The notes: generated by a model from the sequence alone, not told the origin. A DNA stretch of 64,000 nucleotides from an uncultured Clostridia bacterium (GCA_944393385.1 CALYAA010000001.1:48221-112220), one strand, 5' to 3'; numbered from the stretch's first letter, positions 23,963-51,033 are shown. Translations and numbers: made by a program.

Positions 23963-23963
23963 A

Positions 23964-26340: not shown

Positions 26341-27479
26341 AAAATATATTGTACATACATGCAGGAGCAGAACTATATGGAGCAGATATTGTATTATTGA
26401 ATTTAATAAAGGGGCTAAATAAAGAAAAGTATAAACCATATGTAATACTTCCATGTAATGGACCCTTAGTAGATAAAATGAAACAAAATAACATAAATGT
26501 TGAAGTAATACCATATCCTATTTTAAGAAGACAATATTTTAACATAAAAGGTATTTTTAAGTATATCACTGGATATTTTAAATATTCGAAAATTTTAGCA
26601 AAAAAAGCTAAAGAATATAATATAGATATTTTACATGTAAATACAATTGCAGTATTAGAAGGTATATATATTAAAAATAAAACAAAAGTAAAATTAATTT
26701 GGCATATACATGAAATTTTAGAGAAACCTAAAATTATTGCTAAATTCTTGTCAAAATTAGTAGCAAAATACGCGGATAAAGTAGTTGTTGTATCAAATGC
26801 AGTAAAAAAACATTTAGAAACTATGGCAAATTTTAAAAAAGAAATAAAAGTTATATATAATGGTGTTGACAATGAAATATTCAATTCAGATAATGATGTT
26901 AATTATCTAAAAGAACAATTTAAAATACCAGAAAATTCTAGAATAATTGGAATGATAGGAAGAATTAACTCATGGAAAGGCCAAAAAGATTTTATTGATG
27001 CAACCAATAAACTATTAAAAAAACACACAGACTTATATGCAATGCTTGTAGGAGGTGTATTTGAAGGACAAGAATGGAGAAAAAAAGAACTTGAAGAATA
27101 CATCTCTAATCAGGAAAATTCAGATAGAATAATTTTAAGTGATTATAGAGTGGATACCAAAAACATACATAATTTGTTTGATATATTTGTTTTACCAAGT
27201 ACTGAACCAGACCCACTTCCAACAGTTGTATTAGAAAGTATGGCTACTGGAAAACCAATTGTTGCATACAAACATGGAGGAGTTTGTGAAATGGTAAAAG
27301 AGAATTTTAATGGTTTGTTTGCAATACCAAGAGATGTGGAAGAATTATCAAATAAGATAGAGCAAATGTTAGAAAGTGATTATAAAAAGTTTGGAAAAAA
27401 CTCATATGAAAGACAAAAAGAATTTTTCTCATTACAAAGTTATATAAAAAACTTTGAACAATTATATGACGAAATTTAA
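26337..27479 (+). CDS. Glycosyltransferase family 4
   Basis: EX7E-type motif FVLPSTEPDPLPTVVLESMATGKPIV. Confidence 0.8.
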   Translation: MKNILYIHAGAELYGADIVLLNLIKGLNKEKYKPYVILPCNGPLVDKMKQNNINVEVIPYPILRRQYFNIKGIFKYITGYFKYSKILAKKAKEYNIDILHVNTIAVLEGIYIKNKTKVKLIWHIHEILEKPKIIAKFLSKLVAKYADKVVVVSNAVKKHLETMANFKKEIKVIYNGVDNEIFNSDNDVNYLKEQFKIPENSRIIGMIGRINSWKGQKDFIDATNKLLKKHTDLYAMLVGGVFEGQEWRKKELEEYISNQENSDRIILSDYRVDTKNIHNLFDIFVLPSTEPDPLPTVVLESMATGKPIVAYKHGGVCEMVKENFNGLFAIPRDVEELSNKIEQMLESDYKKFGKNSYERQKEFFSLQSYIKNFEQLYDEI

Positions 27480-27491
27480 GGAAGGTAGTAT

Positions 27492-28355
27492 ATGGATATA
27501 TCAATTATTACACCAGTGTATCATGGAAACAAATATATTAATTCATATTTGAAATCTATATTAAAAGCAAGTGATAAAATCTTAAATAATGTAGAAGTTA
27601 TTTTAGTAAATGATAGTCCAGAAGTAAAAATTGAATATGATGAAAATTTAGCATCAAAAATTAAATTTAGAATTATTGAAAATAAAAACAACATGGGAAT
27701 ACATAAATCAAGAGTAGCAGGGGTTAGAGAAGCTAAAGGTAAATACATTTTATTTTTAGATCAAGATGATGAGATAACAGAGAATGCTTTAGTTACTCAA
27801 TTAGATATTATACAAAATGGTGCAGATATTGTATTAGGTAATGGTATATATGAAGACGGAAAAAAATTAAATAAAATATTTGCAAATAAATTTTCACAAA
27901 ACTTTTCTGTAAAAAAACTACCATATTTATTAGCAAGGAATTTTATAATTTCTCCAGGTCAATGTCTAATAAAAAAAGAAAGTATTCCAGAATACTGGTT
28001 AAATAATATTATGCAAGTTAATGGGGCAGATGATTATTTATTATGGTTACTAATGTTTAATAATAACGCAAAAATAGAGTGCAACTATAATGTTATATAT
28101 ATTCATAAATATACTGGAGAAAATGTTTCACTAAATAATGAAAAAATGTACAAATCTCAATTGGATTTGATACAAGTTTTAGAAAAAAATGAAGAATATA
28201 AAAAAAGAGACTTAAAAAAATTAAAAAGAGCAATTAATTATAAACATGATTATAAAAATCATTTTTTTGTTGAAACATTAAAAAATCTTGATATTTTTAT
28301 ATATAATGTATGTTATAAAATTTTATGGAATGGGTATACAATAAAATCAAAATAA
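27492..28355 (+). CDS. Glycosyltransferase family 2
   Basis: ISIITPVYHG...ILVNDSPE...FLDQDDE (DXD). Confidence 0.8.
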   Translation: MDISIITPVYHGNKYINSYLKSILKASDKILNNVEVILVNDSPEVKIEYDENLASKIKFRIIENKNNMGIHKSRVAGVREAKGKYILFLDQDDEITENALVTQLDIIQNGADIVLGNGIYEDGKKLNKIFANKFSQNFSVKKLPYLLARNFIISPGQCLIKKESIPEYWLNNIMQVNGADDYLLWLLMFNNNAKIECNYNVIYIHKYTGENVSLNNEKMYKSQLDLIQVLEKNEEYKKRDLKKLKRAINYKHDYKNHFFVETLKNLDIFIYNVCYKILWNGYTIKSK

Positions 28356-28395
28356 TAAACATTTATAATAATTTTAATAAGAAGGAAGGAAAATA

Positions 28396-29529
28396 GTGAA
28401 AATATTATTTGTTTCAAATGATTCGACTTTATTAGGCTCAAGTAAGTCAATGATTAATTTGGCTAAAGAACTTAAAAAGAAAAATCATGACATATATATT
28501 ATTATTCCTAAAAAAGGAGTTATAGAAGATGAATTATCTAAATTAGGTATAAAATATAAAATATTTAGGTATTATAGTTGGATTAGACCAATTGGCGAAA
28601 AGAGATATATAAAATATATTGCTAAAGTAATTTTAACATTAATTTCAAGCTTTAAAATTGCTAAATGGGTAAAAAAGAATAATATAGATATTATTCATTC
28701 TAATAATTCTGCTACATATGTTGGAAGTATTGTATCAAAAATAACTAAAAAGAAGCATATATGGCATATAAGAGAACTAATGCAAGAAGATCACAATTTG
28801 GATTTTTACAATAACAAAATTACATATAAACTATTTAATAAAGCTGATTACTTAATTTATATATCAAAGGCAGTTGAAAATAAGTATGAAAAAATATTAA
28901 ACAATCCAAACGCACAGCTTATATATAATGGAATTCCAGTTGATAAGTATATAGATGTTAAAACACCAGAATTTAGTAAAAATAAAATTAAATTTTTAAT
29001 TGCTGGTAATGTATGTAAAACAAAAGGACAAGAAGAAGCAATAAAGGCTATAGAATATTTAAAAGATAAAGGTATAAAAAATTTAGAATTACAAATAGCT
29101 GGTGATGGTATAATGAAAGATGAATTAGAAGAATATGTTAAAAAGAATCAGCTAAATGATACAATAAAATTTTTAGGATTTAGAAATGATTTAGATGAAA
29201 TAAGAAAAAATATAAACATTTATTTAATGTGTTCACAAAATGAGGCATTTGGTAGAGTTACAATTGAAGCAATGATGGCAAAAAATTTAGTTATAGGAGC
29301 AAATACTGGAGGAACAATTGAACTTATTTCTAATGGTTTTAATGGTTTTTTATATCACCAAGGTGATTATAAAGACTTAGCTAATCAAATTGAATATGTA
29401 ATAACACATTGGGAAAATTGTGAAAAAATTATTGAAAATGCATATACAGATGCAATGAATAAGTTTTCAATACAACGTTGTGCAAATCAAGTTATACAAG
29501 TATATGAAAAAGTATTAGGAGATGAATAA
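28396..29529 (+). CDS. Glycosyltransferase family 4
   Basis: GTG start; EAFGRVTIEAMMAKNLVIGANTGGTIELI. Confidence 0.8.
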   Translation: MKILFVSNDSTLLGSSKSMINLAKELKKKNHDIYIIIPKKGVIEDELSKLGIKYKIFRYYSWIRPIGEKRYIKYIAKVILTLISSFKIAKWVKKNNIDIIHSNNSATYVGSIVSKITKKKHIWHIRELMQEDHNLDFYNNKITYKLFNKADYLIYISKAVENKYEKILNNPNAQLIYNGIPVDKYIDVKTPEFSKNKIKFLIAGNVCKTKGQEEAIKAIEYLKDKGIKNLELQIAGDGIMKDELEEYVKKNQLNDTIKFLGFRNDLDEIRKNINIYLMCSQNEAFGRVTIEAMMAKNLVIGANTGGTIELISNGFNGFLYHQGDYKDLANQIEYVITHWENCEKIIENAYTDAMNKFSIQRCANQVIQVYEKVLGDE

Positions 29530-30820
29530 TATGTATAAAGTAGCAGTAGCAGGAACAGGATATGTTGGACTAGTTGCAGGCGTTTGCTTTGCAGAAAAAG
29601 GACAAAATGTAATATGTGTAGATATTGATGAAAATAAAGTTAATATAATGAAAAGTGGTGTTTCACCAATTTATGAACAAGATTTAGAAGAATTAATGCA
29701 AAAAAATTATAAAGCAGGAAGATTAGATTATACAACAGATTATAAAAAAGCATATAAAGATGCAGATTTTATATTTATAGGGGTAGGAACACCAGAAAGA
29801 AAAGATGGATCAGCAAATTTAGACTATGTATTTAATGTAGCAAAACAAATTGCTGAATCAGTGGAAAAAGATTGTATTATTGTTCTAAAATCTACTGTTC
29901 CAATAGGAACAAATGATGAAATTGAAAAATATATAAAAGAAAATTTAACACATAATGTAAAAATAGAGGTAGCAAGTAATCCAGAATTTTTAGCTCAAGG
30001 AACAGCAGTAAGAGATACATTACATGCTTCAAGAATTGTAATTGGAACAGAAAGTAAATTTGCAGAAGAAAAAATGTTAGATTTATATAAAAATTTTGAA
30101 TTACCAATTGTATCTACTAATAGAAGAAGTGCAGAGATGATAAAATATGCATCAAATGACTTTCTTGCTTTAAAGATTAGTTATATGAATGATATAGCTA
30201 ATCTTTGTGAGGTAGTAGGAGCAAATGTTGAAGATGTTGCAAAAGGTATGAGCTATGATAAGAGAATTGGAGACAAGTTCTTAAGAGCAGGATGTGGCTA
30301 TGGAGGAAGTTGTTTTCCAAAAGATACAAAAGCTTTACACTATCTTGCACAACAAGGTGGATATGAATTAAAAACTGTAAAAGCTGCAATAGAAGTTAAT
30401 AAAAATCAAAAACTTATACTATTAAAAAAAGCAAGAAAGATTTTTAAGAGTTTTAAAAATGTTAATATTGCAGTTCTTGGATTGACATTTAAACCTGGAA
30501 CAGACGATTTAAGAGAAGCTCCATCATTAGATAATATAGCAATATTATTAGAAGAAGGTGCAAATATTAAAGCATATGATCCAGTTGGAGAAGAAAATTA
30601 CAAAAAAATCTATCCAACAGAAATAGAATATGTAAAAACACCTGAAATAGCATTAAAAGATGCAGATGTTTGCTTTATATTTACAGAATGGAACGAAATA
30701 AAAAATGTGAAACCAGATGAATATAAAAAATTAATGAAAAGACCTTTAATATTTGATGGAAGAAACATATATGAATTAGAAGAAATGAAAGATTTAGAAT
30801 ATTATTCAATAGGAAGATAG
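29522..30820 (+). CDS. ugd: UDP-glucose 6-dehydrogenase
   Basis: N-terminal Rossmann VAVAGTGYVGLV, catalytic GGSCFPKD; probable true start MYKVAV at 29531. Confidence 0.88.
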   Translation: MNNMYKVAVAGTGYVGLVAGVCFAEKGQNVICVDIDENKVNIMKSGVSPIYEQDLEELMQKNYKAGRLDYTTDYKKAYKDADFIFIGVGTPERKDGSANLDYVFNVAKQIAESVEKDCIIVLKSTVPIGTNDEIEKYIKENLTHNVKIEVASNPEFLAQGTAVRDTLHASRIVIGTESKFAEEKMLDLYKNFELPIVSTNRRSAEMIKYASNDFLALKISYMNDIANLCEVVGANVEDVAKGMSYDKRIGDKFLRAGCGYGGSCFPKDTKALHYLAQQGGYELKTVKAAIEVNKNQKLILLKKARKIFKSFKNVNIAVLGLTFKPGTDDLREAPSLDNIAILLEEGANIKAYDPVGEENYKKIYPTEIEYVKTPEIALKDADVCFIFTEWNEIKNVKPDEYKKLMKRPLIFDGRNIYELEEMKDLEYYSIGR

Positions 30821-30828
30821 GAGTAAAT

Positions 30829-31764
30829 ATGAATATAGTAGCAGTAGTTGTAACTTACAATAGAAAAGTATTATTAAAAGAATGTATAGATGCAATTTTA
30901 AAGCAAACTAGGCCTATTACAAAGCTTATTATAATAGATAATAACAGTACAGATGGAACATATGAGATGCTAGAAAATGAAAATTATTTAAATAATAGCA
31001 AAGTCTTTTGTAAAAGATTAGAAAAAAATACAGGTGGAGCTGGAGGATTTCATGAAGGAATAAAAGAAGCTATAAAAGATCAGGCTGATTGGGTATGGAT
31101 TATGGATGATGATACAATTCCAAACAGTGACTGTTTGGAAAAAATCCTTTTAGCTAAAGAAAAAACAAACAATAAAAATGTAAGCTTTTTTGCTAGTTCA
31201 ATTTATGGAGTTAATAAAGAATTTATGAATGTTCCTAATGTAGATACTAGTGTTGAAGAAAATGGTTATCAAAATTGGTATGAATTTTTGGCTGATAAAA
31301 TGGTAAAAATAAATACTGCTACATTTGTTTCATTATTAATAAATGGAGATGCAATCAGAAAGTTTGGATTGCCATGTAAGCAATATTTTATTTGGGGCGA
31401 TGACACAGAATATACAATGAGATTAACAAAATATTATGGTCCAGCATATATGGTGGGAGATAGTATAGCAATACATAAAAGAAAACTAACTAAAGCCCTA
31501 AATATAGTAGATGAGGAAGATAAAAACAGAATCAAAATGTATTATTACATGGTTAGAAATAATCTTATTAATACCAAAAATTATAAAGGAACTAAAGCAA
31601 CTATTGCTTTATTAATACAATATATTAAATCAATAATTTTTGTTACCTTTAAAGGTAAACTAAAAATGAAAAAAATTGGTGTTATATTAAAAGGAATATT
31701 TGCTTTTATATTTAAAAGGTATGATGCAAAAGCATTCAAAAACAGATTTTCAATAGAGTTTTAA
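30829..31764 (+). CDS. Glycosyltransferase family 2 (rhamnosyltransferase-like)
   Basis: VAVVVTYNR...IIDNNSTDGT...WIMDDD. Confidence 0.78.
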   Translation: MNIVAVVVTYNRKVLLKECIDAILKQTRPITKLIIIDNNSTDGTYEMLENENYLNNSKVFCKRLEKNTGGAGGFHEGIKEAIKDQADWVWIMDDDTIPNSDCLEKILLAKEKTNNKNVSFFASSIYGVNKEFMNVPNVDTSVEENGYQNWYEFLADKMVKINTATFVSLLINGDAIRKFGLPCKQYFIWGDDTEYTMRLTKYYGPAYMVGDSIAIHKRKLTKALNIVDEEDKNRIKMYYYMVRNNLINTKNYKGTKATIALLIQYIKSIIFVTFKGKLKMKKIGVILKGIFAFIFKRYDAKAFKNRFSIEF

Positions 31765-31774
31765 GGTGTGAAAG

Positions 31775-33220
31775 ATGAAAAATAGTATATTAAAAAATTA
31801 TATATATAATCTAATATATCAGATTGTTGTAATTATATTACCATTAATAACAACTCCTTATTTATCAAGAGTGTTAGGGGCTGAAAATATTGGAATATAT
31901 AGTTATACATTATCTATAGTGACATATTTCATTCTTATTGGTTCATTAGGTGTTGCTATGTATGGGCAAAGAGAAATAGCATATTTGCAAAATGACAAAA
32001 AAGGAAGAAGTAAAAAATTTTGGGAAATTGTAATTTTTAGAATGATTACATTAATGATTTCTATGGTTATTTTTTACTTCACATATGCTGCTAGTGGTGA
32101 ATATAAGGTATATTATCAAATATTCTTATTAGAAATATTTGCAAATATTTTTGATATAAGTTGGTTTTTTCAAGGAATGGAAGACTTTAAAAAAACTGTA
32201 GGTAGAAATTTAATTATTAGAATTTTAAGTGTAATATTAATTTTTATTTTAGTTAAAGATCAAGATGATTTAGCAAAGTATATAATTATTTATGTTTTAA
32301 CAACTTTTATAGGAAATATTTCACTTTGGTTTTATTTACCAAAATATATACAAAAGGTATCATTAAAACATCTAAATATAATACAACATATAAAACCTAC
32401 TATTTCCTTATTTATTCCACAAGTTGCAACACAAATTTATACTGTTTTAGATAAAACTATGATAGGAAGTATTTTGGGTGATATGTCTGAAGTAGGATAT
32501 TATGAACAAGGACAAAAAATAACTAAATTAACTTTAGCAATTATAACAGCTTTAGGAACTGTTGTTGCACCTAGAATAGCAAATACATTCAAGGATGGAA
32601 ATAAAGAAGAAATAAATCAGTATTTAAATCGTTCTTTTAAATTTGTTTGGCTATTAGCATGCCCAATGATTGCAGGTTTAATTGTAGTTTCCTCAAATTT
32701 CGTTCCAATATTTTATGGGGATGGATATGATAAAGTAGCTACAATATTATGTGTTATAAGTCCTTTAATATTGGCAATAGGATTAAACAATGTAACTGGT
32801 GTACAATATTTGATTCAAGTAAAAAAACAAAGAATATATACAATAACAGTAGTTATTGGAGCTATAGTAAATATAGTATTAAATTTTATTCTTATAAATA
32901 TATTTAAATCTGTTGGAGCAGCAATTGCATCAGTATTAGCTGAGACTGCAATTTTAATTGCACAATTAATTTTTGTAAGAAAAGATATTAATATTAAAAA
33001 TGTATATAAGGGAGCTTGGAAATATATTCTTAGTAGTATAATTATGTTTATATTTACAATATTATTAAAAGATATAACAAATAATCAATTCTATAATTTA
33101 ATAATACAAATTGTAACAGGTTCATGTATTTATTTTGTAATACTTTTCATTTTGAAAGATGAATTTTTAAAAGATGTTATACAAAGAGTACTTAATAAGT
33201 TTAAACCAAAAAGAGCGTAG
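31775..33220 (+). CDS. Wzx-type oligosaccharide flippase (MOP superfamily)
   Basis: 481 aa, about 12-14 TM helices, LSRVLGAENIGIYSY N-terminal motif. Confidence 0.8.
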   Translation: MKNSILKNYIYNLIYQIVVIILPLITTPYLSRVLGAENIGIYSYTLSIVTYFILIGSLGVAMYGQREIAYLQNDKKGRSKKFWEIVIFRMITLMISMVIFYFTYAASGEYKVYYQIFLLEIFANIFDISWFFQGMEDFKKTVGRNLIIRILSVILIFILVKDQDDLAKYIIIYVLTTFIGNISLWFYLPKYIQKVSLKHLNIIQHIKPTISLFIPQVATQIYTVLDKTMIGSILGDMSEVGYYEQGQKITKLTLAIITALGTVVAPRIANTFKDGNKEEINQYLNRSFKFVWLLACPMIAGLIVVSSNFVPIFYGDGYDKVATILCVISPLILAIGLNNVTGVQYLIQVKKQRIYTITVVIGAIVNIVLNFILINIFKSVGAAIASVLAETAILIAQLIFVRKDINIKNVYKGAWKYILSSIIMFIFTILLKDITNNQFYNLIIQIVTGSCIYFVILFILKDEFLKDVIQRVLNKFKPKRA

Positions 33221-33229
33221 GTGATTTGA

Positions 33230-35230
33230 TTGAAAAAATTTATAAAAAAGATGCTAAAAAAAATAATTAAAGAAAATTTTTTGGTGAAACATATTGAATT
33301 GATAAAAATTAATTATAATAAACATAAACGTGTAACCAATTCAAAAAACGAAAATATTAAATATTTTATTAAAGAATGTTTAAAAATGAAATCATATCCT
33401 AGCAAAAAAACATATAAACTAATCAAAAGTATAGATGTGGAAATTGATTCAGAGAATCATTTTATCTACTTTATTGATACAATGAAGCAAATTAGAAAAA
33501 TTGACAGAATTATTGGAAATATTACAATAGATTATAATAGACTATTAACCAATAGCTTAAAAGATTTAGAAAATACCAATAACCAAAAAATTATTGAAGC
33601 AATAAAATATTTAGTTGGTAAAACAGAAAAAGAAATAGATAAAACCAAAAATAAATATGCTGAGCAAATTAAACAAAATTTAGAAGAAATAAAAACAACA
33701 AAATCTACTACATTTTATTCTGCACTACAACGTATTTTATTTTATAATCAATTATTATGGCAAACTGGTCATAGACTAAATGGATTAGGCAGATTAGATA
33801 AAATTTTGGAACCTTTTTATGAAGAAGATTTAAAAAATGGAAAAATAACAAAAGAAACAGCAAAAGAGCTGATAAAAGATTTCTGTGCAATATTACACAA
33901 ATATTATTGGTTTAAAAGTAATGTATTGATGGGAGATACTGGACAAATAATTATATTAGGCGGAAAAGAGGAAAATAATTTATATTTTTGTAATGATTTA
34001 ACATATCTTTTTATAGAAGTTATGAAAGAATTGCAAATTCCAGACCCAAAAGTATTATTACGAGTGAGTAATAATATGCCAAAAGATTTGATGGAACTTT
34101 CAATAAAATGTGTTCAAACAGGAATAGGTTGTCCATTATTTTCAAATGATGATGTAGTAATACCTAAATTAATTGAATTCGGATATCCTGAAGAAAGTGT
34201 CTATGATTATGTAACTGCTGCTTGTTGGGAACCAATTATGCCAGAAAAAACATTAGATCAAACCAACATAACTACAATAAATTTTCTAAATCCTTTTCAT
34301 GAAATGCTGGAAAAAGAAGAATTAAATAAAATAAAAACTACAGAAGAAATTTTGGAAATATATACTAAATATTTGAAAAATTATTGTGATGACATTGTTA
34401 AAGTTTTAGATAAAGTAAAATGGCAATATGACCCACTATTATCTTTTATGACAGAAGGATGTGAAAAAGAAGATATTTCATGTGGTACTGCAAAATATAA
34501 TCATTATGGAGTTAATTCAGTAGGGCTTGCTAGTACTGTAAATTCTATTTTAAACATTGAGAGTTTAGTTTTTAATAAAAAAGAATTTACTTTGGAAGAG
34601 CTAAATAATGCTAGAAAAAATAATTATTATGATAAAGACATTAATTTTGTTAAAATGTTAAAGAACCAAGATAAAAAATATGGAAAAGACGATGAACAAG
34701 TAATTGAACTTACTAATTATATTACAAATGTTGCTAATGAACAATTTTCTAAATATAAAAATAAGTTTGGAGGAAAAATAAAATTTGGATTAAGTTCACC
34801 TGGTTATATATCAGAGGCAGAGAAAACTGATGCATCACTAGATGGAAGAAAAGCCAAGGAACCTTTTGCTGTTCATATTTCATCTGATGATAGTCAAGCT
34901 TATACAGAGTTAGTTCAATTTGCAAGTAAATTAGATTATACGGGGAATCGTTTTAATGGAAATGTTGTTGATTTTATGGTTTCACCAGATTTTATAGAAA
35001 ACAATTTTAGAAAATTTGTAGATTTTATGATGGCAAGTATCAAAGTCGGATTTTTTCAAATGCAGATGAATGTTGTAAGTAGTAAAATGCTGATAGAAGC
35101 AAGAAAGAATCCAGATAAATTTCCAAATTTGATTGTTAGAGTATGGGGATTCAGTGCTTATTTTAATGATTTACCGGAAGAATATAAAGATGTATTAATT
35201 GAAAGGGCATTGAAAAATGAAGGAAAATGA
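33230..35230 (+). CDS. Glycyl radical enzyme, Cys-X-Glu (eliminase/dehydratase-like) class, unusually short (666 aa)
   Basis: C-terminal glycyl-radical fingerprint IVRVWGFSAYF (Gly codon 35147-35149); putative thiyl loop TAACWEP (Cys 34223-34225); TTG start with AGGTGA RBS. Confidence 0.75.
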   Translation: MKKFIKKMLKKIIKENFLVKHIELIKINYNKHKRVTNSKNENIKYFIKECLKMKSYPSKKTYKLIKSIDVEIDSENHFIYFIDTMKQIRKIDRIIGNITIDYNRLLTNSLKDLENTNNQKIIEAIKYLVGKTEKEIDKTKNKYAEQIKQNLEEIKTTKSTTFYSALQRILFYNQLLWQTGHRLNGLGRLDKILEPFYEEDLKNGKITKETAKELIKDFCAILHKYYWFKSNVLMGDTGQIIILGGKEENNLYFCNDLTYLFIEVMKELQIPDPKVLLRVSNNMPKDLMELSIKCVQTGIGCPLFSNDDVVIPKLIEFGYPEESVYDYVTAACWEPIMPEKTLDQTNITTINFLNPFHEMLEKEELNKIKTTEEILEIYTKYLKNYCDDIVKVLDKVKWQYDPLLSFMTEGCEKEDISCGTAKYNHYGVNSVGLASTVNSILNIESLVFNKKEFTLEELNNARKNNYYDKDINFVKMLKNQDKKYGKDDEQVIELTNYITNVANEQFSKYKNKFGGKIKFGLSSPGYISEAEKTDASLDGRKAKEPFAVHISSDDSQAYTELVQFASKLDYTGNRFNGNVVDFMVSPDFIENNFRKFVDFMMASIKVGFFQMQMNVVSSKMLIEARKNPDKFPNLIVRVWGFSAYFNDLPEEYKDVLIERALKNEGK

Positions 35231-36386
35231 GAAAGGTAGAATTCTTTTATATGATACTTTGAAATTATTAGCAATTCTTTTAGTAATTATAGGACATACA
35301 ACATATATAAACATAAAAGTAAAATATGGATTTGGAGCTTATTTTGAACCAGAATATTATTCGGATTTTTATAAAATGATGCTAAAAATTGTCCAATTTA
35401 TTTATCAATTCCATATGCCATTATTTATATTTATCTCAGGAGCTTTATTTTATAAGGAAATTAATAAAGAAAATTTTTCATTTGAAAACCTTCTAAATAA
35501 AAAAATTAAATCTTTATTAATACCTTATTTGGCATATGGAATTTTATATACAATTATGGTAAAATTAATAGCAGGATATTATAGTTTTGATAATTTGCCA
35601 TACGTAGTTATATATGAAGTTTTATTGGGACAAAATACTACACAACATATTTGGTTTTTGCCTACTCTATTTTTCATTACAATAATGTTTTATGTAGTAT
35701 ATATTACATTAAAAAAGGATAAAAAGTTACTTACAATATTCTTTATAATAATGTCATTATTTATGTTGCAAATAAATGTAACTTTTCCAGGAGTGAAATA
35801 TTTCACTAAATTATTTCTATTTTTTGGTTTAGGTTGCTTTTTTGAAGATATAAGAGTTAAATTTGAAAAGTTTAGCTACAAAAGAGAAATTGTACTTTTT
35901 ATAATATGTTCTGCTTTATCTTTGATATTATATAAAATACTAATAAATATAAAAAGTATATTTGTTAAGGACATAATAGACATATTATTTATTATAATAG
36001 CAATTTTTGTATGTATAATTATTTCTATTATGATTACCAAAATAAAAAGAATTAGAAATTGTAATTTATACAAAAAGATTCTAGATTATTCATTTGAGAT
36101 TTATGTTTTAGGAGATCCTATAAATTATATTATTTTACAATTGATTACAATTTTTAATTTGGGATATTTATACCAAACAAATATTGGAAGTTTTGTAATT
36201 ATTGCTATAAGAAGTATAGGTGTACTAATTATATCAATTCTTATAGCACAAGTAATTAGAAAACTAAAAAAATATGAAAAGTTTAATAAGATTGTAAAAA
36301 TAGCATTATTTTTTATAATAGTAATTTCAATAATAATTGTAATTTGTAATTCATTATTAGGAATTATACCAATTACATATAAATAA
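35217..36386 (+). CDS. Acyltransferase family 3 membrane O-acyltransferase
   Basis: LKLLAILLVIIGHTTY motif, about 10 TM helices; overlaps the GRE stop by 14 nt. Confidence 0.75.
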   Translation: MKENEKGRILLYDTLKLLAILLVIIGHTTYINIKVKYGFGAYFEPEYYSDFYKMMLKIVQFIYQFHMPLFIFISGALFYKEINKENFSFENLLNKKIKSLLIPYLAYGILYTIMVKLIAGYYSFDNLPYVVIYEVLLGQNTTQHIWFLPTLFFITIMFYVVYITLKKDKKLLTIFFIIMSLFMLQINVTFPGVKYFTKLFLFFGLGCFFEDIRVKFEKFSYKREIVLFIICSALSLILYKILINIKSIFVKDIIDILFIIIAIFVCIIISIMITKIKRIRNCNLYKKILDYSFEIYVLGDPINYIILQLITIFNLGYLYQTNIGSFVIIAIRSIGVLIISILIAQVIRKLKKYEKFNKIVKIALFFIIVISIIIVICNSLLGIIPITYK

Positions 36387-36399
36387 ATAGGAGAAAAAA

Positions 36400-37158
36400 A
36401 TGTTAATAACTAATATACAACGATTTTCTTTACATGATGGACCGGGGATTAGAACTACAGTATTTCTTAAAGGTTGTAATTTGAGATGCCCATGGTGTGC
36501 TAATCCAGAAAACCTATCATTTCAAAAGGAAGAATATGTTAAAGATGGTATTAAAGGCATTTATGGTTACGAAATAAGTGGAGAAGAACTAGAAAAGGAA
36601 ATTCTAAAAGATAAAATTTATTATGAAGATGGTGGAGGAGTTACTTTTTCTGGAGGAGAAGCATTGCTAGCATTCAAAGAATTGGAACCATTGCTAAAAA
36701 AATTAAAGGAAGATAAAATTAACATATGTGTGGAAACAGCTTTAATGGTAAAAAATGAATTATTAGAAATAGCATTAAATTATGTAGATTTATTTATTAT
36801 TGATATTAAAATATTAGATGACTCATATAGCAAAGAAATAATTGGAGGAAAAGTTCAACTATATAAAGATAATATTGACAGAGTATTTAAAGCAAATAAG
36901 AAATTTATATTTCGAATACCACTAATTAAACCATATACTTGTAATGAAGCAAATTTAAATGAAATATATTCTTTAATACAACAATATCCACCAGAAAAAT
37001 TAGAAATTTTTAAGGTTCATAGATTAGCTGAAAATAAATATAAATCTTTAAATAAGAAAATGATTGAAATACAAGAAGAAGTTACAGAACAAGATATGAA
37101 GAAAATAAAAAAGGATATTGAGAAATTTGCTATTAATGTTGATATTTGTAAATTATAG
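36400..37158 (+). CDS. Glycyl-radical enzyme activating enzyme (radical SAM)
   Basis: QRFSLHDGPGIRTTVFLKGCNLRCPWCANPE, a canonical GRE-activase N-terminus with CX3CX2C. Confidence 0.85.
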   Translation: MLITNIQRFSLHDGPGIRTTVFLKGCNLRCPWCANPENLSFQKEEYVKDGIKGIYGYEISGEELEKEILKDKIYYEDGGGVTFSGGEALLAFKELEPLLKKLKEDKINICVETALMVKNELLEIALNYVDLFIIDIKILDDSYSKEIIGGKVQLYKDNIDRVFKANKKFIFRIPLIKPYTCNEANLNEIYSLIQQYPPEKLEIFKVHRLAENKYKSLNKKMIEIQEEVTEQDMKKIKKDIEKFAINVDICKL

Positions 37159-37169
37159 AAAGGAAAAGA

Positions 37170-38306
37170 TTGATAATGGAAAAATATGATTATTTAATTG
37201 CAGGCTCTGGTCTATTTGGAGCAATATTTGCATATGAAGCAAATAAAAAAGGAAAAAAATGCTTGGTAATAGACAAGCGTTCACATATTGGAGGAAACAT
37301 TTATACAGAAAATATAGATGGAATAAATGTACACAAATATGGAGCACACATATTTCATACAAGCAATAAAGAAGTATGGGAATATATTAATCAATTTGCA
37401 GAATTTAATAGATATACAAATTCACCAGTAGCAAGATATAAAGACGAATTATATAATATGCCATTTAACATGAATACATTTAATAAGTTATGGGGAGTAA
37501 TTACACCTGCAGAAGCAAAAGCTAAAATAGAAGAAGAAAAGAAAGAAGCAGGAATAACAGAACCAAAAAATTTAGAAGAACAAGCTATAAGTTTAGTTGG
37601 AAAAACAATATATGAAAAATTAGTAAAAGGCTATACAGAAAAGCAATGGGGGCAAAGGGCAACAGAACTTCCAAGCTTTATAATAAAAAGACTACCAGTA
37701 AGATTTATTTATGATAATAATTATTTTAATGATATTTATCAAGGAATACCAATTGGAGGATATACACCAATTATAGAAAAAATGCTAGATGGTATAGAAG
37801 TAAAATTAAATTGTGATTTCTTTGAAAATAAAGAAGAGCTAGAAAATATTGCAGAAAAAATTGTATTTACAGGACAAATTGATAAATATTATGATTATAA
37901 ATTTGGAGAACTAGAATATAGAAGCTTAAGATTTGAAACCGAAACTCTAAACGAAGAAAATCACCAAGGAAATGCAGTTGTAAATTATACAGAATATGAA
38001 GTACCTTATACAAGAATTATAGAACATAAACATTTTGAATATGGAGCAAGTCTTGGAAAATTAGCAGAAGGACAAGCAGCAACTAAAACAATTATTACAA
38101 AAGAATATCCAGATAAATGGAGCAAAGAAAAAGAACCATATTATCCAATTAACAATGATAGAAACAATGCATTATATGAAAAATATAAAGAATTAGCAGA
38201 TAATGACAATAAAGTAATATTTGGTGGAAGATTAGGACAATATAAATATTATGATATGGATAAAGTTATTGCAGAAGCATTAAAACTTTCAAAAAATGAG
38301 TTATAA
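37170..38306 (+). CDS. glf: UDP-galactopyranose mutase
   Basis: YDYLIAGSGLFGAIFA FAD motif, HKYGAHIFHT, C-terminal GRLGQYKYYDMD. Confidence 0.9.
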   Translation: MIMEKYDYLIAGSGLFGAIFAYEANKKGKKCLVIDKRSHIGGNIYTENIDGINVHKYGAHIFHTSNKEVWEYINQFAEFNRYTNSPVARYKDELYNMPFNMNTFNKLWGVITPAEAKAKIEEEKKEAGITEPKNLEEQAISLVGKTIYEKLVKGYTEKQWGQRATELPSFIIKRLPVRFIYDNNYFNDIYQGIPIGGYTPIIEKMLDGIEVKLNCDFFENKEELENIAEKIVFTGQIDKYYDYKFGELEYRSLRFETETLNEENHQGNAVVNYTEYEVPYTRIIEHKHFEYGASLGKLAEGQAATKTIITKEYPDKWSKEKEPYYPINNDRNNALYEKYKELADNDNKVIFGGRLGQYKYYDMDKVIAEALKLSKNEL

Positions 38307-38320
38307 GAAAGAGGTATATT

Positions 38321-39373
38321 ATGGGAAAACATAACGAAGAAAAGAAAAAAAGCAAAGGACTAAAAATATTTTTAAGAGTATTATTAATATTATTAATCAT
38401 AATAGTAATAATAGCAGGAATAGCAGTTGGGTATGTAACAAACAAACTTGGAAAAATAACAGTAGAAGAAATAGATGAAACAGCCATAGGAATTGATGAA
38501 GAAACCCAAGAAAGGCTTTCTGGATACAGAAACATAGCATTACTAGGAATAGACAGCAGAGAAGATGACTACGGAGTTGGAAATAGAAGTGACTGTATAA
38601 TAATAGCAAGTTTAGATGAAAAAACAAAACAAATAAAACTAATTTCAGTATATAGAGACACATATATGCAAATTGAAGAAAAAGGAAAACAAGTTCTAGA
38701 TAAAGTAACACATGCTTATGCATATGGAGGAGCTCAAAATACATTAAAAGCTTTAAATACAAATTTAGACTTAAATATTACAGAATATGTTACAGTTAAC
38801 TTTGATGCAGTTATATCAGCAGTTGATGCAATGGGTGGAGTAACAATAAATATAGATAGTTCGGAAATAGAATATATAAATGATTATATTAAATCTACAT
38901 CACAAAGCTCAGGAATAAGTTCAAATGCTATAACAAAGGCAGGTTCACAAACATTAGATGGTGTACAAGCAGTTGCATACTCAAGAATAAGATATACATC
39001 TGGTGGAGACTATAAGAGAACTGAAAGAATGAGAACTGTAATAGAAGCTATGCTAAATAAAGCAAAAACCTTAAGTATTAGTCAATTAAATAAACTAATT
39101 GATACAGTATTACCTAGAGTAAGTACAAATATATCTGGTGCAGAAATATTAGGATTAGTACCAAGTATTACTTCATATTCAATATCAGATAGTATAGGAT
39201 GGCCATATAAAACAGAAGGTATAACATTAGATAGATGGTATGGAGTTCCAGTAACACTTGAAAGTAATGTTTTACAATTGCATCAAGAAGTATTTGGACA
39301 AACAGATTATGTTGTAAATGATACTATTAAAAATATAAGTCAACAAATAATAAATAAAACAGGAAAGAAATAA
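38321..39373 (+). CDS. LytR-CpsA-Psr (LCP) family glycopolymer-to-peptidoglycan ligase
   Basis: N-terminal TM helix, then LLGIDSRED...SDCIIIASLD...ISVYRDTY. Confidence 0.85.
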   Translation: MGKHNEEKKKSKGLKIFLRVLLILLIIIVIIAGIAVGYVTNKLGKITVEEIDETAIGIDEETQERLSGYRNIALLGIDSREDDYGVGNRSDCIIIASLDEKTKQIKLISVYRDTYMQIEEKGKQVLDKVTHAYAYGGAQNTLKALNTNLDLNITEYVTVNFDAVISAVDAMGGVTINIDSSEIEYINDYIKSTSQSSGISSNAITKAGSQTLDGVQAVAYSRIRYTSGGDYKRTERMRTVIEAMLNKAKTLSISQLNKLIDTVLPRVSTNISGAEILGLVPSITSYSISDSIGWPYKTEGITLDRWYGVPVTLESNVLQLHQEVFGQTDYVVNDTIKNISQQIINKTGKK

Positions 39374-39381
39374 TAATTAAA

Positions 39382-39410
39382 GGCGGAAAATTTTTCCGCC
39401 TAAGTTTTTA
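39382..39410. terminator. Terminator closing the polysaccharide cluster (bidirectional)
   Basis: AGGCGGAAAATTTTTCCGCCT followed by AAGTTTTTA. Confidence 0.8.
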
Positions 39411-39438: not shown

Positions 39439-40152
39439 CTACTCAACCACCTCAAACAAACCAAACCCCTGAGAATTCCTATTACCCAAGCCACAGTCAT
39501 ACAAAAAAGACAAATAATCAGGAGAGCCACCCAATATAAAATTACCCTTCCAAGCAGTAATATAAACATTTTTCAAAGAAGTCACAACCTTATCAGAAGA
39601 AGAAACACAAGTAGTAATAATTTCAACATCAGAAAAAGGAGCAGTATTATAATAAGACAAAAACTTTTTACAAAAATTATTATTTATATATTGCTCAAAA
39701 TCTTTATCCTGAGGAGAAAGATAAACAGTTTTATTATCCTCAACTCTTTTAGACAAACAAATAGGAGAATTCATTTTAATATCAATACTATTTTCTCTAA
39801 TAACCCTATTTTCCAATTTCAAACTTACAGGAAAATTTTCAGTTCCAAAAGTAATTCCATTACATTTCAAATATTCATAAACAAGAAAAATAAAATAGCT
39901 ATCAACACTCCTTATTTCCAAAAAAACATTTCCAGTAAAAGTAATCCTTTTATTACTAATTGAATGTTTTCCACATAATGAACTAAAAGTAAAAAGCTTA
40001 AAATTTGATTCATTTTGTCCAACATCATGCAATAATTTTTGATAATGAATATCATTAGACAAAGCAGTATAAATTACGCCTTGTAAAATATGAGAATAAT
40101 TAATAGGTAAAGTCAAATTTCTATTTAAATTTATATAAACTTTTAATTGCAT
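39439..40152 (-). CDS. cas6: CRISPR-associated endoribonuclease Cas6
   Basis: Start MQLKVYINLNRNLTLPINYSHILQGVIY with a GGAGGAG RBS; C-terminal Gly-rich loop GLGNRNSQGFGLFEV; the track's longer ORF starts at a TTG at 40170. Confidence 0.85.
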   Translation of the reverse strand: MQLKVYINLNRNLTLPINYSHILQGVIYTALSNDIHYQKLLHDVGQNESNFKLFTFSSLCGKHSISNKRITFTGNVFLEIRSVDSYFIFLVYEYLKCNGITFGTENFPVSLKLENRVIRENSIDIKMNSPICLSKRVEDNKTVYLSPQDKDFEQYINNNFCKKFLSYYNTAPFSDVEIITTCVSSSDKVVTSLKNVYITAWKGNFILGGSPDYLSFLYDCGLGNRNSQGFGLFEVVE

Positions 40153-40239
40153 AATAATAATCTCCTCCAAAATATTAGTTCAATTATATCACATAAAAAT
40201 AAAAAAACAACAAAAACTATTTAATATTTAAATACATTA

Positions 40240-40248
40240 TGGTATAAT
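40240..40248 (+). promoter_or_regulatory. Extended -10 element (TGgTATAAT) in the divergent cas6 / NTPase intergenic region
   Basis: TGGTATAAT 39 nt upstream of the 40287 start. Confidence 0.4.
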
Positions 40249-40286
40249 TAAACAGACTTAATATAAAAATAAAAGAGGAAAATAAA

Positions 40287-42923
40287 ATGGAAAAATTAAA
40301 TCAAGAAACATATTCAAAACAATTCACAGACAGAGTAGAAGCAAGAGAGCTATTTTGGAAAGAATACCAAAAATTAAGCACTGAAATAAATGAGGGAAAA
40401 ACAGGAACCGACCCCACACAAACCAACCCCAAATTAATTAACTATTATGGAATTGGAGGAATGGGAAAAACCACATTAATAAACCAATTAATAAAAGAAC
40501 TTTCAAAAAATGACAAAGAAAATTTGTCAATATTTATTGATGCCGAAGATTTCAATAATACACTAGATGTTTTATATTCAATCAGAAATATTTTAAATGA
40601 AAACTACAAAATAAAATTCAACAAATTTGATCTAGCACTAATTATCTATTTAAAAAAAGTAGGAAAAAGTCAAGAATCTCCAGAAATAAAAGACATATTA
40701 AATAGTAATCCTATAGCAAAATTAATAGGAGACACAATTTCAAATGTATCTATTCCAATGTTATTAATAAAAAATGGATTAGACAAACTAATAAGTATAG
40801 GCATGAGTCAAAGGTACAAAAAATTTGTTCAAAGTATAGAAATAGAACAATTACCAAATAACATATTAGAAAACTTGCCACAATATCTTGCAGATGACAT
40901 AAATGAATATTTAAAAGGAAAAAACAAAAAAATAATATTCTTCTTCGATACATTCGAAAAATTAGATGAAAGCACAATAGGAAGTACAGCAACATTAAAT
41001 AAAACAAAATGGTTATATAATATTCGTAATACAGGAATAATAAACGAAATAAAAAACAGCATATTTGTAATAGGAAGTAGAGAAAAAATAAATGAAATTC
41101 CGGGAATTAAATATTTTAAACTAGATAAGTTTGATGAAAAATATTCATATGAATATTTAAATAATGCTGGTATTAAAGATATTAATTTATGTAAAGAAAT
41201 ATTTAATAAATATACAAATGGAATGCCATTAATGCTTAGTACATGTGTAGACAGTTATAATATAGAATCACATGAATTATTTGTACAAAATATATCTGAT
41301 AGCAGTCAAGGAATAATAGAAAGACTAATAGGAAGTTTAGACTTAGATAGTCAAGCACTAGTATATTTCTTAAGTTGTGTAAAAAAGTGGAATGATAAAT
41401 TCATTATAAAAAACGCTCCAAAATGTCTAGAAAACTTTTCAAGCTATAGATATGAAAGTATAAAAAAATTATCATTTATAACCAAAGACTTACAAGGAAA
41501 CTACACATTTGACAAAACAATTCGTATGATACTACATAGTGAAAATAATGAATTTGTAAATAATATGAAATACATAATTCAAAAAACAAATAAATTTCTA
41601 ATAGATTACTATAAAGAAATATTAGAAAACAGTAATTCAACAATAACAGAAAAAAATACAGCATTAAACCAATATATAAAAAGAAAAATTTTATTAGAAA
41701 ATAACCCAAAAGAACTAATAAATGACTATAAATTTATCAAAATACATTTAAAAGAACTAGAAGAACTGTTTTTATTTGACGATTTATCAAAACATCTAAA
41801 CAGATTACTTGAAAAATATAATAATATTATAGAAGTTAAAAATTCAATAATAGAAGAACAAATTAATATATTATATTTATCAGGTCAATATAAAGAAGAA
41901 GAATCAAAATCAAAACAATATTTTGACTTAGATCCAAAAAACACAAGAGCAATTGAAAAACTAGCAATTGCATATATGCATAACAGCAAATACAAATTAG
42001 CTAATGAAAAAATTAATGAAGTTTTAAACCAAACAGAAAAAACAGACCTAAAAAATTATATAAGAGTATTAATGGAAGCATCAGAAATCAAATCTCGAAT
42101 GGGTGAATATAATACAGTATTAGAAAATTACATATGGATAAAGAAAAAACTAAATACAATATATGAAAAAAATGATTTATCTAAAAAAGAACTTGAAATA
42201 GAAAGACTTATAGCCAAAACATATTCATATATGGGAGATTATAAAAAAGCAATAGAAAATTATAAAAAAATATTAAATATAAATGGAGATGAAGTTATAC
42301 AATTAGAACAAAATAAAGAAATTTTAACAATTGATGAATTAAATTTTTACAATGATTTAAGTAATACATATTCAAACAATAATGAATTTGAAAAGGCACT
42401 AAAAATAAAAGAAAAACTTTTAGAAATATATACAGAAATATTAGGAGAAAACCACCCTTGGACACTAAATGTAAAAAATGATATAGGAATGATTAAGTCA
42501 CATCAAAAAAACTATGAAGAAGCAATTAAAATCTTAAAAGAAACATATGAAGCAAGAAAACAAGTTTTAGGAGAAGAGCACTTATCTGCAATTGCAACAT
42601 TAAATAATTTAGCAATTGTTAAAGTATTTTATGCAGATGGCTTAACAGATGAGCTTAAGAAAAAAGAAATATATACAGATTCTTTGTTACAACTTGAAAC
42701 TGTATACAAAATAAGAAAAAATAATTTAGGTGAAAACCATCCAAGTACATTAAGAACATTATTTAATATTTCAAAAAATTTAAAAGAACTTGGAAGAAAG
42801 CAAGAAGCATTACAAATAGCACAAAAACTTTACGAAACCAGAAAAAGTACTTTGGGAGAAGAAAATCAAGAAATAGTAAAAACAAAACAATTAATTGACG
42901 AAATTAATTCTTTAAATGCCTAA
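40287..42923 (+). CDS. STAND/NB-ARC-like P-loop NTPase with a C-terminal TPR array
   Basis: Walker A GIGGMGKTT (40450-40476), Walker B-like IIFFFDTFEKLDE, and a C-terminal about 350 aa of TPR-like repeats (NHPWTLNVKNDIGMI, EEHLSAIATLNNLAIV, ENHPSTLRTLFNISK). Confidence 0.75.
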   Translation: MEKLNQETYSKQFTDRVEARELFWKEYQKLSTEINEGKTGTDPTQTNPKLINYYGIGGMGKTTLINQLIKELSKNDKENLSIFIDAEDFNNTLDVLYSIRNILNENYKIKFNKFDLALIIYLKKVGKSQESPEIKDILNSNPIAKLIGDTISNVSIPMLLIKNGLDKLISIGMSQRYKKFVQSIEIEQLPNNILENLPQYLADDINEYLKGKNKKIIFFFDTFEKLDESTIGSTATLNKTKWLYNIRNTGIINEIKNSIFVIGSREKINEIPGIKYFKLDKFDEKYSYEYLNNAGIKDINLCKEIFNKYTNGMPLMLSTCVDSYNIESHELFVQNISDSSQGIIERLIGSLDLDSQALVYFLSCVKKWNDKFIIKNAPKCLENFSSYRYESIKKLSFITKDLQGNYTFDKTIRMILHSENNEFVNNMKYIIQKTNKFLIDYYKEILENSNSTITEKNTALNQYIKRKILLENNPKELINDYKFIKIHLKELEELFLFDDLSKHLNRLLEKYNNIIEVKNSIIEEQINILYLSGQYKEEESKSKQYFDLDPKNTRAIEKLAIAYMHNSKYKLANEKINEVLNQTEKTDLKNYIRVLMEASEIKSRMGEYNTVLENYIWIKKKLNTIYEKNDLSKKELEIERLIAKTYSYMGDYKKAIENYKKILNINGDEVIQLEQNKEILTIDELNFYNDLSNTYSNNNEFEKALKIKEKLLEIYTEILGENHPWTLNVKNDIGMIKSHQKNYEEAIKILKETYEARKQVLGEEHLSAIATLNNLAIVKVFYADGLTDELKKKEIYTDSLLQLETVYKIRKNNLGENHPSTLRTLFNISKNLKELGRKQEALQIAQKLYETRKSTLGEENQEIVKTKQLIDEINSLNA

Positions 42924-42950
42924 AATCTGGTATAAGAAAGGAAACAAAAT

Positions 42951-43907: not shown

Positions 43908-43921
43908 AAGGAAAAATAAAA

Positions 43922-45700: not shown

Positions 45701-45719
45701 AAGAAAGAGAGGATTATAA

Positions 45720-51004: not shown

Positions 51005-51033
51005 TTTACAATTATTAATATAAATAGCCTTAA

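Follow-up and report, generated by a model that had tools for sequence, protein, structure and literature searches.

What part does a glycyl-radical enzyme (GRE) play inside an operon for the assembly of a surface polysaccharide? The question is raised by a 64,000-nt stretch of DNA from an uncultured Clostridia bacterium (GCA_944393385.1, CALYAA010000001.1:48221-112220; hereafter the window, to which all coordinates refer unless another locus is named), in which the genes for a 666-aa GRE and a 252-aa radical S-adenosylmethionine (radical-SAM) activase lie among glycan genes. Comparison of sequences suggests, with a probability that I put at roughly 0.6, that the two proteins are an active GRE and its dedicated activase, and that they represent a deep-branching, uncharacterised family taking part in surface-glycan assembly in strict anaerobes. 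That the GRE genuinely belongs to a glycan pathway can, taken by itself, be stated with much greater confidence.

Recurrence of the GRE in glycan clusters

One genome per species was scanned, which gave relatives of the GRE in 221 genomes, and the best 80 loci were taken; together with the window these formed 81 non-redundant loci, and their neighbouring open reading frames (ORFs) within 8 kb were clustered. A well-flanked subset was formed by the 39 loci whose flanks measured 6 kb or more on each side. Homologues in the 80 other species-level loci were 36-80% identical to the window GRE, and a database search brought up a coherent family whose members measure 640-700 aa and share 50-60% identity with the query, in addition to near-identical copies. 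The carriers come from gut and rumen and are uncultured or have been little studied; they are Clostridia, Bacilli, Lachnospiraceae, Oscillospiraceae, Selenomonas, Erysipelotrichaceae, Anaeroplasmataceae, Coriobacteriia, Muribaculaceae (Bacteroidota), Aeromonadales, Mollicutes and many Methanobrevibacter.

The neighbourhoods were similar throughout. An activase gene was present in 73 of the 81 loci, followed by a GT2 glycosyltransferase (58), one family of Wzx flippases (57), UDP-galactopyranose mutase (UGM, encoded by glf; 44) and DUF4422 proteins (19), with all other families in 18 loci or fewer. Glycan genes were found in every one of the 39 well-flanked loci, where 557 of 614 neighbouring genes were on the strand of the GRE. 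Typical layouts were Wzx-GRE-activase-(glycosyltransferase)-Glf and GRE-Wzx-activase, and in Methanobrevibacter a divergent Wzx stood beside the GRE-activase pair, with DUF4422, GT2 and Glf genes nearby. Mantel tests on pairwise-identity matrices, which ignore species phylogeny, gave correlations between the GRE and its partners of r = 0.85 for the activase, r = 0.61 for Wzx and r = 0.57 for Glf (p <= 0.001).

Because the arrangement recurs in 80 independent species-level loci, it lies far beyond chance. Across bacteria and Methanobrevibacter, wherever a locus had enough flank, the family was found only in glycan clusters, and its conserved partners are the activase, the Wzx flippase and a galactofuranose (Galf) machinery of Glf, DUF4422/WbbM-like and GlfT1-like GT2 proteins. 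The initial annotation, made from the sequence of the window, had allowed for an insert that came to lie there by chance and is absent from orthologous glycan clusters; the pair was found in orthologous and non-orthologous glycan clusters alike, at 80 loci.

Operon structure in the window

The glycan operon of the window spans 23252-39373 in DNA of 25% GC. All its genes run head to tail on the + strand with intergenic gaps of at most 41 nt, a gap of 284 nt lies 5' of the first gene, and the only convincing terminator was a hairpin directly 3' of the last gene, which encodes an LCP-family ligase (Table 1). The narrow gaps and the single strong terminator at the end therefore make the GRE and activase genes an integral part of the operon, with no sign of a separately regulated insert. 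A promoter scan of 22.5-40.5 kb was uninformative because the DNA has only 25% GC, returning 148 sites where 155 were expected.

An initiating transferase, glycosyltransferases, a Wzy polymerase (a weak assignment, PF04932 below cutoff), Wzx and an LCP ligase occur together in this one operon, which is the content of a Gram-positive-type Wzx/Wzy locus. Judging by gene packing and the terminator, the GRE and its activase are co-transcribed inside it. The initial annotation had put the GRE between wzx and glf and had described the GRE and activase as embedded in a glycan cluster: the first is borne out by the coordinates in Table 1, and the second by the gaps, the single terminator and the recurrence in 80 other loci.

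The glycyl-radical enzyme and its active site

The GRE gene starts with TTG, ~6 nt downstream of an AGGTGA ribosome-binding site. Its product matched the PFL-like family PF02901 (1.4e-67) in an alignment that does not start before profile position 224, and its C-terminal domain is a glycyl-radical domain (PF01228, 1.2e-12). The fingerprint RVWGFSAYF and a Cys-Trp-Glu loop had both been pointed out before, and both stood: the former surrounds Gly640, and the latter reads ACWEP and has no Cys-Cys pair, i.e. it is of the CxE type and not of the CC type of pyruvate formate-lyase (PFL). Cys332 in this loop aligned with C433 of glycerol dehydratase (GD), C431 of PflD and the catalytic Cys of CutC. 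The enzyme is also as unusually short as had been claimed, falling ~100-180 aa below its solved relatives (765-850 aa), and it lacks ~65 residues from the helical N-terminal region through which other GREs dimerise. An AlphaFold2 model made with 26 family sequences had a pLDDT of 87.9 and a pTM of 0.89, and all 50 matches listed for it by Foldseek against the PDB were GREs (TM 0.67-0.82). As modelled, the protein has the GRE fold, a 10-stranded beta/alpha barrel with Cys and Gly finger loops.

Within this fold, identity to any solved GRE was 29% at most. The family was 22-29% identical to GD, PflD and CutC, which is below the identity of these three to one another (35-42%), and it therefore forms a separate, deeper branch. 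The best sequence and fold matches were the PflD sugar-phosphate isomerases (8ID0, 8YJO), then GD, CutC and propanediol dehydratase. No curated NCBIfam family fitted the GRE, with every equivalog cutoff missed ~4-fold or more: it scored 191.9 bits against a cutoff of 1050 for CutC, 186.1 against 1100 for HypD, 201.1 against 1000 for HpfG and 217.4 against 1109 for PRK09983. It likewise fell short of the cutoffs for glycerol dehydratase TIGR01774 (261 bits, cutoff 678) and PFL TIGR01255 (59.2 bits, cutoff 994.2).

Conservation was counted over 80 family members, and all statements on the active site rest on alignments to GD, PflD and CutC, made with MAFFT and with a hidden Markov model (HMM) profile. 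Glu334 and Gly640 were invariant (80/80), Cys332 and the ACWEP motif were each kept in 78 of 80, and the radical Gly is flanked by Trp and Phe in this family and by Ala and Tyr in solved GREs. The window GRE thus carries, as C332-W333-E334, the CXE motif that is a hallmark of 1,2-eliminases and isomerases, in which the Glu hydrogen-bonds and deprotonates the substrate hydroxyl (Imrich et al., June 2026 review, PMC13450708). His281 of GD corresponds to invariant H181 in the profile alignment, shifted by one residue in MAFFT, and Gln340 to conserved Q239, while Tyr640 is replaced by invariant Ser522 and Tyr339 is deleted. Invariant residues specific to the family include R168, W177-Q178, K229, G235-D236-T-G-Q239, K274, Y526, H549, N578 and D581.

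Two members, from an Anaeroplasmataceae metagenome-assembled genome (MAG; L079:4956-7061) and a Methanobrevibacter MAG (L082:121-2136), had Ser in place of the Cys-loop Cys (DSWEP). The same two had Cys in place of the Trp before the radical Gly (VRVCGFS) and Gly in place of Asn97, as if the thiol had been moved to the Gly loop in a coordinated way.

A minimal radical-SAM activase

The activase of the window carries its CX3CX2C motif as CNLRCPWC at nt 36475-36498. It has six Cys and consists of the radical-SAM domain only, with neither a ferredoxin-like insert nor a CX2CX2CX3C motif. The activases of the family are all short (median 256 aa), and the ferredoxin-type CX2CX2CX3C motif occurred in none of 73. 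The vast majority of GRE-activating enzymes (GRE-AEs) carry a ferredoxin-like insert with eight extra Cys, and the radical-SAM-only architecture is otherwise confined to PFL-AE and the activase of ribonucleotide reductase, RNR-AE (PMC13450708). The earlier label 'PflA-type' is consequently right for the architecture, which lacks a ferredoxin domain; in sequence, the nearest subfamily is that of the PFL2-type activases. Extra radical-SAM genes were seen at two loci: one immediately follows the activase and codes for a Radical_SAM_C domain (L087:5252-6160), and the other encodes 458 aa and lies two genes upstream of the GRE (L060:5908-7284).

Coupling to the flippase and to glycosyltransferases

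The Wzx family lay at a median distance of 88 nt from the GRE in the 57 loci that contained it, and in most bacterial loci it was the immediate neighbour of the GRE. Bacterial copies were 42-60% identical to the window Wzx and Methanobrevibacter copies ~23-26%, with a lowest pairwise identity of 17% within the family; flippases as a rule diverge strongly. The 150 best matches listed by a profile search against 1.84 billion representative proteins were then considered; ~100 of them scored above 440 bits, while below this value the scores fell gradually to ~280 among other, mostly longer GREs. Six longer proteins among the matches listed were fusions (Table 1), in which the GRE is joined to Wzx, to a GT2 or to a 180-aa N-terminal extension. 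P0183, P0211, P0134 and P0153 are each a continuous ORF with an activase on the same contig; the Wzx half of P0183 was 41% identical to the window Wzx, and the GT2 half of P0134 was 38% identical to the GlfT1-like GT2 of the window. The GT2-GRE fusions adjoin ABC-2 transporter genes. The extension of P0159 has no Pfam match and resembles, by eye, a Rossmann-like ORF found in a clade without Wzx (see below).

The GRE itself begins with a segment that is rich in Lys and Arg, and the first 40 aa of the window protein have a net charge of +11. Across the family, the net charge of the ~70-aa N-terminal segment ranged from +7 to +22 where Wzx was adjacent and from -4 to +5 where no Wzx was nearby.

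The galactofuranose link

Glf and/or DUF4422, the galactofuranosyltransferase domain of WbbM, were found by tblastn in 33 of the 39 well-flanked loci. A DUF4422-GT8 fusion is encoded immediately upstream of the GRE in two Coriobacteriia loci, and the one in L064 (Coriobacteriales) is homologous over its full length to WbbM, the galactan polymerase (PDB 6u4b, E 7.7e-65). An ABC-2 transporter pair and Glf come after the GRE-activase pair there, and the GRE therefore also occurs in galactan-type pathways that depend on ABC transporters. The Glf of the window is a canonical UGM, ~65-70% identical to solved UGMs by eye, and the candidate Galf transferase is the GT2 at 30829-31764, which rests on a sub-threshold GlfT1 match. 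Overall, the link to Galf is strong without being absolute. The window Glf also has a 10-residue insertion (SLGKLAEGQA, ~aa 291-300), which neither the E. coli nor the C. jejuni enzyme has.

Other substrates proposed in the initial annotation fared less well. UDP-glucose 6-dehydrogenase (Ugd) was present in only 4 of the 81 loci, for which reason a link to UDP-glucuronic acid was rejected, and nothing points to a polyol or a choline-like group.

Proposed reaction and its alternatives

The GRE is probably a radical eliminase or isomerase that acts on a sugar of the glycan precursor, by a 1,2-elimination or isomerisation such as those of GD or PflD. The activase would install a radical on Gly640, from which Cys332 would become a thiyl radical and abstract H from a carbinol carbon of the sugar residue; Glu334 would deprotonate the hydroxyl, and the ketyl radical would expel a beta leaving group to give a carbonyl product. 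D236, H181 or H549 may serve as proton source, or the leaving group may need none. The basic amphipathic N-terminus would hold the GRE at the cytoplasmic face of the membrane, beside the glycosyltransferase and the flippase, which would have it act on a nucleotide-activated or undecaprenyl-PP-linked repeat unit before export. The likeliest target would be UDP-Galf or a Galf residue of the lipid-linked unit, because, in glycobiology, the exocyclic C5-C6 diol of Galf comes closest to glycerol and 1,2-propanediol; a 6-deoxy-5-ulose or a 5-deoxy-6-aldehyde furanose would be formed. Galf as the specific target is a tentative choice. So is the full scheme, in which a membrane-proximal GRE might dehydrate or rearrange Galf (e.g. 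at its exocyclic 5,6-diol) in an activated or lipid-linked unit, giving a deoxy-keto or deoxy-aldehydo furanose, and a co-evolved Wzx might export only the modified unit.

Several observations weigh against this proposal, in which I infer the substrate, the product and even the class of reaction. The general acid of GD, His164, is an invariant Asn97 in the family, and PflD also has His at this position. GD Asp447 corresponds to invariant Asn346 by MAFFT or to D343 in the HMM alignment; the two disagree, and Asn346 would speak against a simple GD-like diol dehydratase. No conserved reductase was found beside the GRE among the loci compared, and a pathway of net deoxygenation is not evident. The Asn-for-His replacements and the lack of such a reductase therefore mean that the enzyme is not a copy of GD chemistry. 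Neither Glf nor DUF4422 was present within 10 kb in 6 of the 39 well-flanked loci, one of which belongs to a Lachnospiraceae clade that has no Wzx and no Glf nearby and carries instead a small Rossmann-like ORF, GT2s, and cytidylyltransferase-like and sugar-isomerase-like genes, so that Galf may not be the universal substrate. To these are added the neglect of species phylogeny in the Mantel statistics, and the fact that each fusion was seen on a single contig, where a sequencing or assembly artefact is possible; the five independent cases of Wzx-GRE and GT2-GRE fusion make such an artefact unlikely.

The stage at which the sugar is modified could also be an earlier one, with the GRE acting on a soluble nucleotide sugar (UDP-Galf, UDP-Galp or another UDP-hexose), the GT2 transferring the new donor, and membrane proximity serving only for channelling. 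GT2-GRE fusions fit a channel from synthase to transferase, the invariant R168, K229, K274, H181 and H549 could bind a diphosphate, and the canonical UGM makes UDP-Galf available. The UGM equilibrium favours the pyranose form, and an irreversible radical step would pull flux from it. The Wzx-GRE fusions and the basic N-terminus that correlates with Wzx point instead to the membrane and the lipid-linked stage, which leaves the soluble route rather doubtful. It is less likely again that the sugar ring is spared and that the GRE processes a non-carbohydrate substituent or precursor, such as a pyruvyl ketal, a lactyl group, or glycerol- or polyol-phosphate: polysaccharide pyruvyl transferases do adjoin the GRE in 8 of ~85 loci, several of them without Glf, the Wzx-less Lachnospiraceae clade has its cytidylyltransferase-like genes, and GRE decarboxylases and small-molecule eliminases are known precedents (PMC13450708), but none of these partner genes occurs in the window operon or in most loci, and the conserved partners are Wzx, Glf and glycosyltransferases. 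I regard this reading as improbable.

Two further explanations do without glycan chemistry altogether. An ordinary catabolic GRE (a glycerol or propanediol dehydratase, a choline lyase, or a PFL-like supplier of acetyl-CoA) lying in the cluster by chance would agree with the generic nature of the family matches, of which TIGR01774 is one, and with the source annotation 'formate C-acetyltransferase'. The missed equivalog cutoffs, the absence of a CC motif and the replaced substrate contacts of GD argue otherwise, as do the lack of microcompartment, aldehyde dehydrogenase and transporter genes, the same glycan context in 80 loci and an acyltransferase neighbour that is not conserved; the comparative data effectively refute it. 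Alternatively, the GRE might be mainly a regulator, its oxygen-labile radical gating the flippase or transferase so that export proceeds only under anoxia, with little or no glycan chemistry. Glycyl radicals are destroyed by O2, and physical fusion to Wzx or GT2 would suit such a role, but the invariant catalytic Cys-x-Glu and the conserved polar pocket are hard to explain without catalysis, there is no precedent, and regulation as the main function appears very improbable. An eliminase or isomerase of glycan-precursor sugars remains the preferred reading.

Relation to known systems and significance

The closest known enzymes are the PflD/YbiW isomerases of 1,5-anhydromannitol-6-P and 1,5-anhydroglucitol-6-P (8ID0, 8YJO, 8ID7), which gave the best match in phmmer (3.5e-58) and by profile (6e-80). 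They matched the GRE model in Foldseek with an E of 7e-36 and a TM of 0.78-0.82, and the CXE Cys loop is present in both. The substrate of PflD is itself a sugar derivative, whose C-O bond is cleaved once a carbinol carbon has lost its H (PMC13450708). In contrast, the window family is only 22-29% identical to PflD, ~110 aa shorter and different in its basic N-terminus, has Asn97 where PflD keeps the His of GD His164, uses an activase without a ferredoxin domain, and belongs to a glycan-biosynthesis operon and not to catabolic 'anhydroglycolysis'. The B12-independent glycerol and 1,2-propanediol dehydratases (1R8W, 5I2G) share the fold, the CXE motif and the pairs His281/H181 and Gln340/Q239, and the dehydration of a vicinal diol by GD is the model for the reaction proposed on the exocyclic diol of Galf. 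These dehydratases differ in being 23-28% identical, in substrate contacts that are replaced here, in equivalog and subfamily cutoffs that the GRE does not reach, and in their catabolic operon, of which there is none in the window. With PFL and PFL-AE, the GRE and its activase have the glycyl-radical domain and the radical-SAM-only architecture in common, whereas the Cys-Cys pair of PFL is lacking and only the C-terminal 130 aa of the window GRE align.

Two systems resemble the proposal in chemistry only. Class III ribonucleotide reductase, a biosynthetic GRE, takes a hydroxyl off a furanose sugar at its vicinal diol. It is a member of the RNR-like branch of the superfamily, depends on formate or thioredoxin as reductant, and gave no sequence match to the window GRE in the searches made. 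AprD4/AprD3 act as tailoring enzymes in the biosynthesis of an aminoglycoside, where the vicinal diol of a sugar is dehydrated by radical chemistry; the dehydratase is a radical-SAM enzyme that is used stoichiometrically and is not a GRE, and it has a partner reductase, of which there is no conserved counterpart here. On the side of the glycan genes, streptococcal-type capsular polysaccharide loci share with the window operon the initiating transferase, a WchF/Cps2T-like rhamnosyltransferase, Wzy, Wzx, Glf, an acyltransferase-3 (AT3) and LCP, and WbbM-type galactan loci share the WbbM homologue and ABC transporter of the Coriobacteriales locus. No GRE-activase pair was reported for a Galf Wzx/Wzy capsule or WbbM-type locus in the literature searched, and no described locus of these types is known to carry one.

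A full-text literature search likewise found no paper linking GREs with capsule, exopolysaccharide, flippase, galactofuranose or UGM. The June 2026 review names no glycan-biosynthetic GRE, and the words polysaccharide, glycan and UDP are absent from it, which agrees with the earlier claim that GREs are not standard in glycan pathways (Imrich et al., PMC13450708). The characterised PFL-like GREs are catabolic or central-metabolic enzymes, all of them bacterial, and the archaeal ones are without an assigned function (PMC13450708). The family described here is a new one by its biological role, its shortness, its basic N-terminus, its minimal activase, and its fusions to Wzx and GT2. If the proposal is true, this would be the first GRE dedicated to glycan biosynthesis, adding radical, strictly anaerobic chemistry to polysaccharide assembly and a sugar product not yet described to the surface glycans of gut and rumen Firmicutes, Coriobacteriia and Methanobrevibacter. 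Because Methanobrevibacter carries the family, it would also be the first functional lead for archaeal PFL-like GREs. Abundant gut and rumen commensals would be predicted to carry sugar modifications not recorded so far, and these would matter for glycan serotyping, for phage receptors and for recognition by the immune system. The fusions to Wzx and to GT2 would offer a rare handle on the physical coupling of tailoring enzymes to flippases, and the combination of an eliminase-type GRE with a minimal activase may make reconstitution easier.

Accessory and neighbouring genes

Table 1. Features of the glycan operon in the 64,000-nt window, and fusion proteins of the GRE family at other loci. Scores below a family's cutoff are marked as such.
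Feature	Position	Strand	Basis
Initiating polyprenyl-phosphate hexose-1-phosphate transferase (short WbaP/CpsE-type), first gene	23252-23962	+	PF02397; TIGR03022 294.8 bits and NF052601 249 bits, both below cutoff
Cps2T/WchF-like beta-1,4-rhamnosyltransferase (DUF1972 + GT4)	23964-25130	+	NF046071 666.7 bits (cutoff 500); PF09314 1.2e-85
Wzy-like repeat-unit polymerase, weak assignment	25102-26340	+	PF04932 Wzy_C 3.1e-06 (below cutoff); multi-pass membrane protein
Three glycosyltransferases	GT4 26337-27479; GT2 27492-28355; GT4 28396-29529	+	Pfam and NCBIfam matches
UDP-glucose 6-dehydrogenase (Ugd/TuaD-like)	29522-30820	+	TIGR03026 458 bits (cutoff 189.8)
GT2, GlfT1/WbbL-like, candidate galactofuranosyltransferase	30829-31764	+	PF00535 5.5e-26; best NCBIfam match gal_furan_GlfT1 87.8 bits, below cutoff
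Wzx flippase, the only one in the operon	31775-33220	+	PF01943 2e-31
GRE, 666 aa	33230-35230	+	PF02901, PF01228, motifs, fold model
Lys/Arg-rich amphipathic N-terminal extension of the GRE, ~70 aa	33230-33439	+	no Pfam match
Cys loop A-C332-W333-E334-P (predicted thiyl-radical Cys, general-base Glu)	CWE at 34223-34231	+	motif; alignment
Glycyl-radical loop R637-V-W-G640-F-S-A-Y-F	35138-35164	+	motif
AT3 membrane O-acyltransferase	35217-36386	+	PF01757 3.9e-31; 14-nt overlap with the GRE gene
GRE-activating radical-SAM enzyme, 252 aa	36400-37158	+	TIGR02494 225.9 bits (cutoff 174.35)
UDP-galactopyranose mutase (Glf)	37170-38306	+	TIGR00031 423.7 bits (cutoff 303.75); E ~1e-153 to E. coli UGM 1i8t
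LCP-family glycopolymer-to-peptidoglycan ligase, last gene	38321-39373	+	PF03816 1.5e-37; TIGR00350 100 bits (cutoff 62)
Bidirectional intrinsic-terminator-like hairpin, operon end	39381-39401	.	9-bp stem, 5 GC pairs, present on both strands
Wzx-GRE fusions P0183 (1125 aa) and P0211 (1053 aa)	L087:1139-4516; L089:620-3781		
GT2-GRE fusions P0134, P0153 and P0135, ~990 aa	P0134 L088:8001-10967; P0153 L090:8001-10979		
P0159, 815 aa: GRE with 180-aa N-terminal extension			

The AT3 gene overlaps the GRE gene by the 14 nt that had been reported. The 'trio' of GRE, AT3 and activase that was built on this is not conserved: a 267-bp internal deletion (36068-36334) interrupts AT3 in L001-L003, metagenomic contigs that are otherwise 99.8% identical, and the gene is absent from the 79%-identical relative L007, where the activase directly follows the GRE. 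Of the 81 loci, only 5 contained a member of the AT3 family, and it separates the GRE from the activase in the lineage of the window alone. AT3 is an independent, lineage-specific accessory O-acyltransferase outside the conserved module, and intact AT3 is a presence/absence polymorphism among close strains. A role of the GRE as supplier of acetyl-CoA to AT3 was rejected, given the absence of a CC motif and of AT3 conservation.

A family of ~320-aa proteins, here called c322, was seen inside the Wzx-GRE-activase-Glf module in 17 loci (among them L004, L008, L012, L013, L016, L017, L019, L025, L030 and L052). It had no match in PDB, Pfam or NCBIfam beyond a sub-threshold one to Galactosyl_T, and is probably an undescribed glycosyltransferase family of the GT-A type. 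Pyruvyl transferases, some of them fused to 4Fe-4S ferredoxin and FrhB-like domains or to GT2, were seen in ABC-transporter-type and Glf-less loci (L088:11809-14421; L090:6576-7871 and 11826-12956; L060:7297-9975).

Downstream, the glycan operon is adjoined by a type III CRISPR-Cas-like module at 39439-53115, which contains Cas6 (- strand), an 878-aa STAND NTPase/TPR protein, a MYG1-family exonuclease, a CARF-domain protein, a short (511-aa) Cas10-like protein and three RAMP proteins; no CRISPR array was detected at 39-64 kb by Tandem Repeats Finder. Upstream of the operon lie cell-division and wall genes, and immediately before it, at 19183-22968, a 1261-aa ORF without a Pfam match.

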